The notes beneath the pieces are model-generated. The model saw nothing but the letters and a program-made list of their open reading frames with translations, was not told where the DNA came from and searched no databases. A DNA stretch of 50,297 nucleotides. It comes from an uncultured Gammaproteobacteria bacterium. GTDB lineage: Bacteria; Patescibacteriota; Microgenomatia; UBA12405. The translations under genes and the position numbers were made by a program. Shown one piece after another: positions 25,438-27,002 of this stretch (position 1 is the stretch's first letter; each line of letters opens with the position of its first letter). The stretch is taken from contig CAZSQT010000028.1 of the NCBI GenBank assembly GCA_964609295.1, positions 1 to 50,297 of the forward strand. Direction: 5' to 3'.

Positions 25438-25493
25438 TTTTTTGGGCAAAGGGTATTAGCAGGGAAGGGGGAGGGTGCTAATTTTCACGCCAC

Positions 25494-25525
25494 GTCCTAT
25501 AATTTTCACGGAATAATTATAGGAC
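25494..25525. repeat. perfect 11-bp inverted repeat with a 10-nt spacer (candidate recombinase core site or operator)
   Basis: GTCCTATAATT-ttcacggaat-AATTATAGGAC. It overlaps a direct repeat aattttcacg (25480-25489 and 25501-25510). Confidence 0.7.
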
Positions 25526-25780
25526 ATAAATAAATGGGTGATATACTATGATATAGTTTGTGTGGAAAACTATATTGATCATTTTGAACCTGTCAAGAGG
25601 GCTCTTCTAAGTTAACTTAAGAGTAATATTTAAATTTAATTAATTTATTTTGTTACTTAGGATTGGCTTTAATTGTTTTATTTTGTAGATAGCTCCCCCT
25701 TGTGAGGGGACAAGAATTTATTATGTCGCACAATGTATCTTTTGCGACATAGGGTTGGAAAAGATGGTGGGGGAGGAAGA

Positions 25781-25822
25781 TTTTCTAATTATTATTTTCT
25801 AATTATTATTTTCTAATTTTAT
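25781..25822. repeat. three tandem AT-rich 14-mers
   Basis: ttttctaattatta occurs twice exactly (25781-25794 and 25795-25808), then a third copy ttttctaattttat follows at 25809-25822. Confidence 0.8.
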
Positions 25823-26051
25823 TATTTTTTACAAAACATCTTTTTTGAAAGTTAATTTTTGGGACATAATTCTCTATTACTGTCCCAATGCTTTTTTTTA
25901 CTTTTTTAGCTTGGATACTACCTCTTGACTCCTCTTTGACTCCCCTGATATTAAATTATGCCTATCTTTGGGTATAAAGTATAACAGACTTCATTAAATC
26001 GCCTGTAAGCGATGTTTTTTATTTTTGTGACATTAGTATCGTCTGTATTTT

Positions 26052-27002
26052 GTGTTAAGATTAAATATGGACTATGATTTGAGCAAAAATATCAGAAAAT
26101 TTTTGGAGTATTTAGAAATTGAGAGAAATTGTTCAAAATTGACTATTAGAAATTATCAGCATTATTTAAATGTTTTGATGGAATATGTAATTGGTCAAAA
26201 AAAGAAAGATGATGTTAGTGTTTTGGATCTTAACTCTGAGATGATAAGAAATTTTCGTTTATATTTATCACGACAACCTGGGGTTGATAAAGAAATGAAA
26301 TCAATTACTCAGGGTTATTATATAATTGCCTTGAGGTCTTTTTTGAAATATTTAGTTAAAAATGATTTTAAGGTTATGCAACCAGAAAAATTGGAAGTAC
26401 CTAAGGTAAAAGATCATAGTTTAAAATTTTTAAATGCGGAGCAGATAAATCGTTTGTTGAATCAACCTTTGCTTTCTAGTAAGACGGGTCTACGAGATAA
26501 GGCTATCTTAGAATTGTTGTTTTCAACCGGCTTGAGGGTGTCAGAGTTGGTTTCTTTGAACAGAAATCAGATTAATTTAAAGACGCGTGAGTTTGGAGTT
26601 ATTGGCAAAGGTGGTCGAAGACGGGTTGTTTTTATTTCTAAAGAATCCGCCAAATATTTGGATAAATATCTTGTTTCTAGAAATGATAATTACAAGCCCC
26701 TTTTTATAAGAATGTCAGGAAAGGATGAAGTGATTGCCAATGATGAAAAAATGAGATTGACGGCCAGATCGGTACAAAGGCTAGTTAAGGCTTATGTCGC
26801 AAAAGCAAAATTACCAGTTGAGGCAACACCTCATACATTGAGACATTCAATGGCAACTGACTTGTTGAGATCTGGGGCTGACTTACGATCGGTTCAAGAA
26901 ATTCTTGGTCATAAAAATATTGCGACAACTCAGATATATACCCATATGACTGATGCTAGGTTAAGAGAGATACATGACAAATTTCACTCTGGTAATAAAT
27001 AA
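26052..27002 (+). CDS. xerC: tyrosine recombinase, XerC/XerD-like
   Basis: N-terminal SAM-like core-binding domain. Catalytic residues lie in GLRVSELVSL (Arg), HTLRHSMATDLL (His-x-x-Arg), and LGHKNIATTQIYTHM (His and Tyr). The GTG at 26052 is the track start; the first ATG is at 26067. Confidence 0.85.
   Translation: MLRLNMDYDLSKNIRKFLEYLEIERNCSKLTIRNYQHYLNVLMEYVIGQKKKDDVSVLDLNSEMIRNFRLYLSRQPGVDKEMKSITQGYYIIALRSFLKYLVKNDFKVMQPEKLEVPKVKDHSLKFLNAEQINRLLNQPLLSSKTGLRDKAILELLFSTGLRVSELVSLNRNQINLKTREFGVIGKGGRRRVVFISKESAKYLDKYLVSRNDNYKPLFIRMSGKDEVIANDEKMRLTARSVQRLVKAYVAKAKLPVEATPHTLRHSMATDLLRSGADLRSVQEILGHKNIATTQIYTHMTDARLREIHDKFHSGNK

Follow-up and report, generated by a model that had tools for sequence, protein, structure and literature searches.

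The dif site is the place at which Xer recombinases separate joined sister chromosomes. In Escherichia coli it is a 28-bp sequence, present once per chromosome, in which two inverted 11-bp arms enclose a 6-bp centre; it is accompanied by XerC and XerD, two paralogous Xer recombinases, by the translocase FtsK with its gamma domain, and by FtsK-orienting polar sequences (KOPS), G-rich words that point to the site from both chromosome arms and flip at the origin. In the XerS/difSL system of streptococci and lactococci, an atypical 31-bp site and its recombinase gene form a single module, passed on as a unit throughout the lineage and situated where the two arms of the chromosome meet (Le Bourgeois et al. 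2007, PMC1914069). In Pseudomonas aeruginosa, whose chromosome arms are unequal, dif is reported to be displaced from the end of replication ('Segregation but not replication terminates at dif', PMC6199493). No paper in the searchable literature combines dif or XerC with Patescibacteria, and the dif of this group is unlocated there. Here we analyse a spacer that compares closely with these systems, located between pta and a tyrosine recombinase gene on contig CAZSQT010000028.1 (assembly GCA_964609295.1); the whole contig, 50,297 nt long, is hereafter the window.

The host genome, G000, amounts to 718 kb in 65 contigs with a GC content of ~33%. The window is its contig C28, and homologs of the window recombinase come from Patescibacteria, which belong to the candidate phyla radiation (CPR). 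In what follows, 'class' is the grouping label of the genome collection, and G025 is a relative with a single contig of 998 kb. A sequence-only reading of the window had singled out some 600 bp as gene-free and dense in repeats, noting that most other gaps were short, and had proposed that they might encode an unclassified structured RNA, hold sites for recombination or regulation, or combine the two. A mechanical scan bears this out: among the stretches of the window that lack an open reading frame (ORF) of at least 40 or at least 60 aa, 25450-26051 comes first with 602 bp, the next two measure 286 and 281 bp, and every listed repeat is present where it had been placed. The spacer is flanked by pta (24502-25449, minus strand; PF01515) and by the recombinase gene (plus strand, from the ATG at 26067 to the stop at 27002). 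No ORF in any frame exceeds 29 aa, which, together with conservation in a motif-like pattern, speaks against a decayed gene. The observation is a real one, and at its centre lies, very probably, the dif site of the chromosome next to a xer gene, an element of a familiar type. Among the explanations first offered, the recombination site is strongly supported, in the form of a dif-type Xer core site, and the structured RNA is not supported.

The core site and its recombinases

The core occupies 25723-25750 on the plus strand and consists of a left arm ATGTCGCACAA (25723-25733), the centre TGTATC (25734-25739) and a right arm TTTTGCGACAT (25740-25750). This 11-6-11 layout agrees with the architecture of Xer sites, which span ~28 bp and combine two inverted arms of roughly 11 bp with 6-8 central bp. 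The arms belong to a slightly longer inverted repeat (25722-25733 / 25740-25751; 12 nt, 92%). The repeat at 25723-25750 was already in the list given by the sequence-only reading, which had not picked it out as the key element. Aligned by us with the E. coli dif sequence, which we take to be GGTGCGCATAA TGTATA TTATGTTAAAT, the core is identical at 18 of 28 bases, including TGTAT of the centre.

Conservation in relatives shows that the region is no mere product of chance: with 60 related genomes added, blastn of the 617-bp spacer matched 56 of the 61 genomes searched. The matching sequence forms two blocks, 25458-25576 and 25696-25822, and conservation is sharpest at 25716-25751, with 90-100% identity across genera and even across families, the palindrome at 25723-25750 being nearly invariant. 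The core is single-copy, no other match being found at up to 7 mismatches in G000 or up to 6 in G025. When a 24-nt pattern was allowed up to 3 mismatches, 158 of the 401 genomes of the class matched, each exactly once, and the reversed 24-nt pattern used as a control gave 0 matches in the same 401 genomes.

The manner in which the core varies is informative. Over 70 loci, arm positions 3-6, 8, 10 and 11 are essentially invariant and the central hexamer occurs in 14 different versions. The two sides of the one variable arm pair, positions 7 and 22, drift independently and without compensation (C-G at 42 loci, C-A at 14, T-G at 12, T-A at 2), and positions 9 and 20 hold a fixed C x T mismatch at 64 of 70 loci. 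Invariant arms, a variable centre and no compensation point to two protein-binding arms around a crossover region rather than to an RNA stem.

The recombinase gene (26067-27002, plus strand) starts ~320 bp downstream of the core and codes for a 311-aa XerC/D-like protein of the Xer type with PF00589 (Phage_integrase) and PF02899 (SAM_1) domains, whose best NCBIfam matches are XerC (247 bits) and XerD (246 bits). A second Xer paralog is encoded on contig C8 and also matches XerC/XerD best in NCBIfam, at 162 bits. Two conserved Xer-like tyrosine recombinases were present in all 11 genomes checked for them, with a further, partial match in one genome. All 5 genomes checked for FtsK encode it with a gamma domain, the G000 copy lying on contig C34 (FtsK_gamma, 94 bits). 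Besides full-length FtsK, two relatives carry additional FtsK_gamma matches in short ORFs of 101 and 294 aa that sit near the antipode of dnaA (G146:C1:684210-684392 and G180:C1:798784-798966).

Site and gene are closely associated. At all 20 family loci the recombinase gene lies directly 3' of the site on the same strand, with 56-75% aa identity, clearly above the 40-57% of the neighbouring proteins at these loci. A Xer homolog lies within ~2.5 kb of the site in 16 of 20 genomes drawn from 13 families. Whether the region travels with the recombinase gene, a check put forward in the sequence-only reading, is thus to a large extent answered in the affirmative. Xer homologs from other CPR classes, namely Paceibacteria and Saccharibacteria, showed no such site within 1.2 kb. 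Isolated dif half-sites near the terminus (XDS-like) were also sought, and their enrichment was not convincing. Inside xer, TTATGTCGCAAAA (26792-26804) matches the reverse complement of the dif right-arm half-site at 12 of 13 positions; it recurs at the same place in G025, L015 and L140, is absent from most relatives, and is probably a coincidence arising from coding sequence.

Adjacency of site and gene as one inherited module at an arm junction recalls XerS/difSL. We rejected membership of that system, with which adjacency is the only shared trait: there are two Xer paralogs here, the site is a 28-bp 11-6-11 sequence instead of an atypical 31-bp one, and the XerS model gives the recombinase only 136 bits (cut-off 267), compared with 247 from XerC/XerD. 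The likeness to E. coli XerCD/dif lies in the form and single occurrence of the site, in the pair of paralogous recombinases and in the FtsK with a gamma domain. By analogy, the 28-bp site would be the single recombination site at which two Xer-type recombinases, one encoded ~320 bp downstream and one on contig C8, resolve chromosome dimers by exchanging strands across the 6-bp centre, and the septal translocase FtsK would reach it from both arms by reading polar motifs of the AGGGGA type. Xer binding and catalysis, dependence on FtsK and the role of AGGGGA as the word recognized by FtsK-gamma are all inferred.

Polar words, skew and the position of the site

A first, unbiased scan of G025 for polar k-mers was swamped by words linked to the coding strand. 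The informative scan of the same genome had its arcs fixed at dnaA and at the site, with gene strand controlled, and the top words flipping at both points all contained AGGGGA (TAGGGGAG, GCAGGGGA, AAGGGGAG, CAGGGGA and others). AGGGGA is the sole one of the 15 A2G4 permutations to run against compositional bias. The cumulative AGGGGA walk along G025 is lowest at 159.7 kb, beside dnaA (166 kb), and peaks at 906,772; a copy on the opposite strand follows at 907,984, and the core (907,688-907,715) falls between the two. Gene strand does not account for this polarity: hAGGGGAk is distributed 74:26 in plus-strand and 52:12 in minus-strand genes of arc A, and 2:18 and 3:34, respectively, in arc B.

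The same polarity is visible in the window, where the ratio of plus-strand to minus-strand AGGGGA is 15:1 to the left of the core but 2:11 to its right (Fisher p = 2.4e-5), with copies at, among others, 4113, 9315 and 13147 (plus) and 27198, 29474 and 41067 (minus). In site-oriented windows of +-10 kb from 20 genomes of 13 families, the left-hand ratio is 101:10 and the right-hand ratio 12:107 (p = 9e-39). In G146 and G180, two genomes of family f13 with a normal bidirectional skew, the switches of AGGGGA polarity coincide exactly with dnaA and the site; G025 was read whole in this analysis, and G146 and G180 were sampled at ~40-50% of their length. AGGGGA thus behaves like a KOPS, being skewed towards dif on both arms irrespective of gene strand and flipping at origin and dif, and the position of the site at the convergence point of a KOPS-like word fits the functional definition of dif position. 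We regard AGGGGA as a candidate FtsK-orienting sequence of this CPR class, in place of the E. coli GGGNAGGG.

The polarity switch can be placed more finely. The last AGGGGA of the left arm (25705-25710, plus strand) points at the core and forms part of a small hairpin of a C-run and a G-run (25693-25710), and the first of the right arm, written TCCCCT, is at 25941-25946 on the minus strand and points back to it. At 12 of 21 family loci there is also a plus-strand AGGGGA, 43-44 bp from the point where the 24-bp conserved core (GTCGCACAA...GCGAC) begins. At 14 of 26 loci, other families included, TCCCCT is found at +193 to +241 from the core, about 200 bp downstream, and AGGGGA (plus strand) occurs at -250 to -390 at 14 of 26. 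The outward AGGGGA and the downstream TCCCCT would place the switch within the AT-rich tract of ~150 bp just right of the core.

GC skew at third codon positions (GC3 skew) presents a different picture. On the plus strand it lies between +0.3 and +0.9 for every gene of the window, regardless of gene strand, and each contig of G000 has a single sign; in G025, all 50 bins of 20 kb share one sign (A.289, C.240, G.159, T.312). The classical rule of a dif at the skew shift point therefore cannot be applied to skew of a single sign, and placing the origin or the terminus by GC skew had to be abandoned for the same reason. The same pattern was described in the Microgenomates order UBA1400 by Kadnikov et al. 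(2020, PMC7143001), who speculated that origin and terminus might be neighbours or that replication might run in one direction only. Finer differences can be detected: mean GC3 skew in the window is 0.65 left of the site and 0.55 right of it (Mann-Whitney p = 0.003), and G025 shows three skew levels. Both are hints of a weak bidirectional component over a large constant one, and the step at dif fits a small replication-linked part that flips there. In G180, GC3 skew flips at dnaA and comes off its positive plateau within the 10-kb bin holding the site. In nearly all families the plus strand of the site is the G-rich one, family f14 being a weak exception.

The distance between site and dnaA was determined in 13 near-complete genomes, 12 of them single-contig (G025, G180, G146, G221, G395, G384, G143, G097, G259, G235, G196, G375 and G214). 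It amounts to 20-41% of the chromosome, with a mean of 34%, and the two are never near each other; in all 13, the shorter arm is the one that carries dnaA, always on that side of the site which faces away from xer. As the arms diverge beside dnaA and converge 20-41% of the chromosome away, the data argue against an adjacent origin and dif. In the E. coli system, by contrast, the figure is ~50%, and skew flips at dif, unlike that of this family. G146 resembles the cases of a displaced dif (PMC6199493; also Kono et al. 2011, PMC3025954), since its polar motif converges on the site with the skew change ~100-150 kb off, whereas the displacement described here is systematic, with dnaA on the shorter arm and on the same side in 13 of 13 genomes.

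Several observations weigh against identifying the core as dif. Both G000 recombinases score below the NCBIfam equivalog cut-offs for XerC and XerD. The arms, palindromic at 10 of 11 positions, are more so than those of classical XerCD dif sites, and the E. coli system does not have a xer gene directly beside the site. In G000 and G025, GC3 skew keeps one sign throughout, the site included; in G146, having flipped at dnaA, it reverses again ~100-150 kb short of the site, near the dnaA antipode. Finally, the conserved AGGGGA ~20 bp right of the core points away from it, which the canonical KOPS model does not predict. Set against the uniqueness of the core, its pattern of conservation, the adjacent xer gene and the convergence of AGGGGA, these points leave it, to judge from the sequences compared, very probable that the region at 25723-25750 is the chromosome's dif locus.

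Together, dif and AGGGGA would provide a coordinate system independent of skew for genomes in which the usual marker of origin and terminus, the flip of GC skew, is missing, and the mode of replication would become testable with coverage data. They would also yield a candidate FtsK-orienting word for a CPR lineage, a means of checking the correctness of metagenome-assembled genomes in this lineage and a conserved dif-linked DnaA-box module.

The upstream DnaA-box module and alternative readings

A second conserved element lies upstream of the core at 25479-25569 (plus strand), its limits being based on the alignment of family loci. It is bordered on the left by the G-rich tract AGGGAAGGGGGAGGGT (25461-25476, plus strand; TAGGGAAGTGGGG-type in its family form) and includes, all on the plus strand, two copies of ATTTTCACG set 21 bp apart (25481-25489 and 25502-25510), GATATACT/GATATAGT (25540-25557) and a perfect DnaA box, TGTGGAAAA (25561-25569), identical to two boxes upstream of dnaA (TGTGGAAAAC). 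Of all genomic clusters of DnaA-box-like motifs the module ranks first, for a motif set that was partly defined post hoc. Its association with dif extends to other families: between -350 and -100 from the core, TTTCACG is found at 23 of 49 loci (0-3 of 49 in controls), a DnaA box at 19 of 49 (controls 0-2) and GATAYAGT at 14 of 49 (controls 0-2). A DnaA-box/TTTCACG module 160-300 bp upstream of dif is thus conserved class-wide.

In the alignment of 20 family loci the elements follow a constant order. The G-rich tract is followed by repeated CCTATAAT and ATTTTCAC(G/A) motifs, one or two GATATAG and TGTGGA(A/T)AA; ~150 nt that cannot be aligned separate these from the small C-run/G-run hairpin, after which come the invariant TATGTCGCACAATGTATCTTTTGCGAC, a GGGGAG block, an AT-rich repeat tract, TTGACTCCCCT and the recombinase gene. 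The pta gene is missing from this position in most relatives, where the module is retained. The remainder of the 600 bp is best explained as promoter and leader sequence of xer and pta together with the conserved DnaA-box/TTTCACG/CCTATAAT module, a putative protein-binding region.

DnaA-box clusters outside oriC are known from E. coli, in datA and DARS, and from Bacillus subtilis. The present module resembles them in having one consensus and two near-consensus boxes far from oriC at a conserved position; it differs in being tied to dif at a fixed distance and in the company of non-DnaA motifs (TTTCACG, GATAYAGT and CCTATAAT). Nor is the E. coli dif flanked by a conserved DnaA-box module and a fixed outward AGGGGA. 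The motif content of the module and its flanks suggests that additional proteins are bound. TTTCACG forms a palindrome, TTTTCACGCGTGAAAA, ~170 bp upstream of the core in G146 (L121) and occurs as inverted CGTGAAAAA copies in G267 (L135); the half-site resembles a half of parS, GTTTCACG.

One could go further and view the whole locus as a composite organiser of the terminus in this CPR class, in which the module and the outward AGGGGA act with Xer and FtsK. We consider this improbable. Were it true, such an organiser might provide DnaA-dependent control, fork arrest or a start for one-way synthesis, and might be linked to the one-sign GC skew, whose G-rich strand follows the orientation of the site in nearly all families examined.

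It is less probable still, to the point of being very unlikely, that a DnaA-dependent and possibly unidirectional replication origin lies here or is included in the locus, built from the DnaA-box cluster, a G-rich cluster and, as unwinding element, the AT-rich 14-mers right of the core. Such an origin might explain a skew that never flips, in keeping with the adjacent origin and terminus or the one-way replication proposed by Kadnikov et al. (2020, PMC7143001), and it could draw on the class-wide conservation of the module, on the perfect DnaA box shared with the pair upstream of dnaA, on the two ATTTTCACG copies 21 bp apart and on AT-rich tandem repeats beside a G-rich block, 200 bp from the module. 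Boxes and an AT-rich tract, as expected of an oriC, are indeed present, yet polarity converges: AGGGGA and gene orientation both run towards the locus and diverge at ~160 kb beside dnaA in G025 and at dnaA in G146 and G180. Relatives with a normal skew have their skew origin at dnaA; the DnaA box here and the AT-rich tract are 160-300 bp apart and separated by dif; and the dnaA-dnaN spacer on contig C35, with two perfect TTATCCACA boxes and at least 3 box-like variants recognized by eye, is the richer cluster. Contig C35 has an origin-like layout at 1900-3640, namely rpmH-rnpA-yidC on the minus strand, a pair of TGTGGAAAAC boxes, dnaA, a spacer of 270 bp that contains at least 5 DnaA boxes, and dnaN; 7-mer repeats of the TTACTAG type lie upstream of dnaA.

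An unclassified structured non-coding RNA of ~250-350 nt, transcribed from an extended -10 element of the TGATATAGT type through the palindrome, would account for nucleotide conservation across genera and for the promoter-like TGnTATAGT elements. The small hairpin 5' of the core (25693-25710) shows apparently compensatory variants in relatives (CCCC/GGGG, CTCTCT/AGAGAG, CTCCT/AGGAG), as judged by eye only, and the plus strand folds slightly better than its shuffled versions (mean z ~-0.8). The structured RNA among the first proposals is nevertheless highly unlikely, for the palindrome lacks compensatory change, its arms vary independently around a conserved C x T mismatch, the two conserved blocks are separated by 150 nt that cannot be aligned, and conservation lies in short motifs, as is typical of protein-binding DNA, which occur on either strand depending on the family (e.g., CGTGAAAA in L135). 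No Rfam family matched the region even at E <= 10: Rfam 15, applied to the window at gathering scores and to the region at E <= 10, returned only tRNAs, a DUF3800-II RNA elsewhere and noise. ARAGORN found no transfer-messenger RNA, and single-sequence folding of both strands gave no strong signal. The DUF3800-II RNA is located at 39994-40055 (plus strand; 65 bits, gathering score 43) within the 281-bp gap at 39949-40229.

The least probable reading, that the spacer is ordinary pta/xer promoter-operator sequence or holds the recombination sites of a local switch in which the adjacent recombinase inverts DNA, could appeal to the divergent genes, a strong promoter directed at pta, the concentration of GTCCTATAAT around xer and an inverted pair, I2 (25720-25742 / 25848-25870, 78%), that could in principle bracket an invertible segment, but the module stays in most relatives although pta is absent from this position there, the partner at 25848-25870 is not conserved, the core is single-copy, and a local switch does not explain the convergence of polar motifs across the chromosome.

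Other elements of the spacer

The remaining repeats of the region differ in their conservation. The 11-10-11 inverted repeat (25494-25504 / 25515-25525), an inverted pair of GTCCTATAAT with fully complementary arms (100%), is complete in only ~7 of 20 family members. It was considered as a recombination site (25494-25525) and rejected on account of its 10-bp spacer, its partial conservation and the use of its half, GTCCTATAAT, as a separate repeated motif. Neither the imperfect GTTAAC palindrome around 25602-25623 nor the tgggaca/tgtccca inverted repeat (25860-25887) is conserved in relatives. The AT-rich tandem 14-mers ATTTTCTAATTATT (25780-25823, no strand assigned; 3.2 copies, 96%, Tandem Repeats Finder score 81) are kept in relatives only as an AT-rich, repeat-like tract. 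They are preceded by the G-rich block GGTGGGGGAGGAAG (25766-25779, plus strand), ~16-29 bp right of the core, which takes the form of the exact AGGGGA mentioned above at 12 of 21 family loci, and purine-rich blocks are found at the same offset in other families.

Promoter-like and leader elements were also noted. A sigma-70-like promoter, TTGACA-16-TATAGT (25569-25596, minus strand), matches at 11 of 12 positions and is directed towards pta; it is specific to this genome and not conserved in relatives. The TTGACTCCTCT/TTGACTCCCCT pair (25925-25946, minus strand), described in the sequence-only reading as a tandem TTGACTCC pair, resembles a -35 element (TTGACT) as well. In the xer leader, a terminator-like hairpin with a T run (25998-26026, plus strand; hairpin 25998-26013) is not conserved, and GACTTCAYYAGAGCC, just 5' of this hairpin, is conserved in relatives.

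Blocks found upstream of xer are repeated downstream of it. In the xer-gyrA spacer, 27168-27226 (plus strand) repeats GTCCTATAAT, GACTCCCCTG and TTTTAGCTTG, whose counterparts upstream of xer are at 25494-25503 and 25901-25947. Only 4 copies of GTCCTATAAT exist in the 718-kb genome, 3 of which flank xer. A CCTATAA+/TCCCCT pair in the xer-gyrA spacer is found at about 5 of 21 family loci, many of which stop near there.

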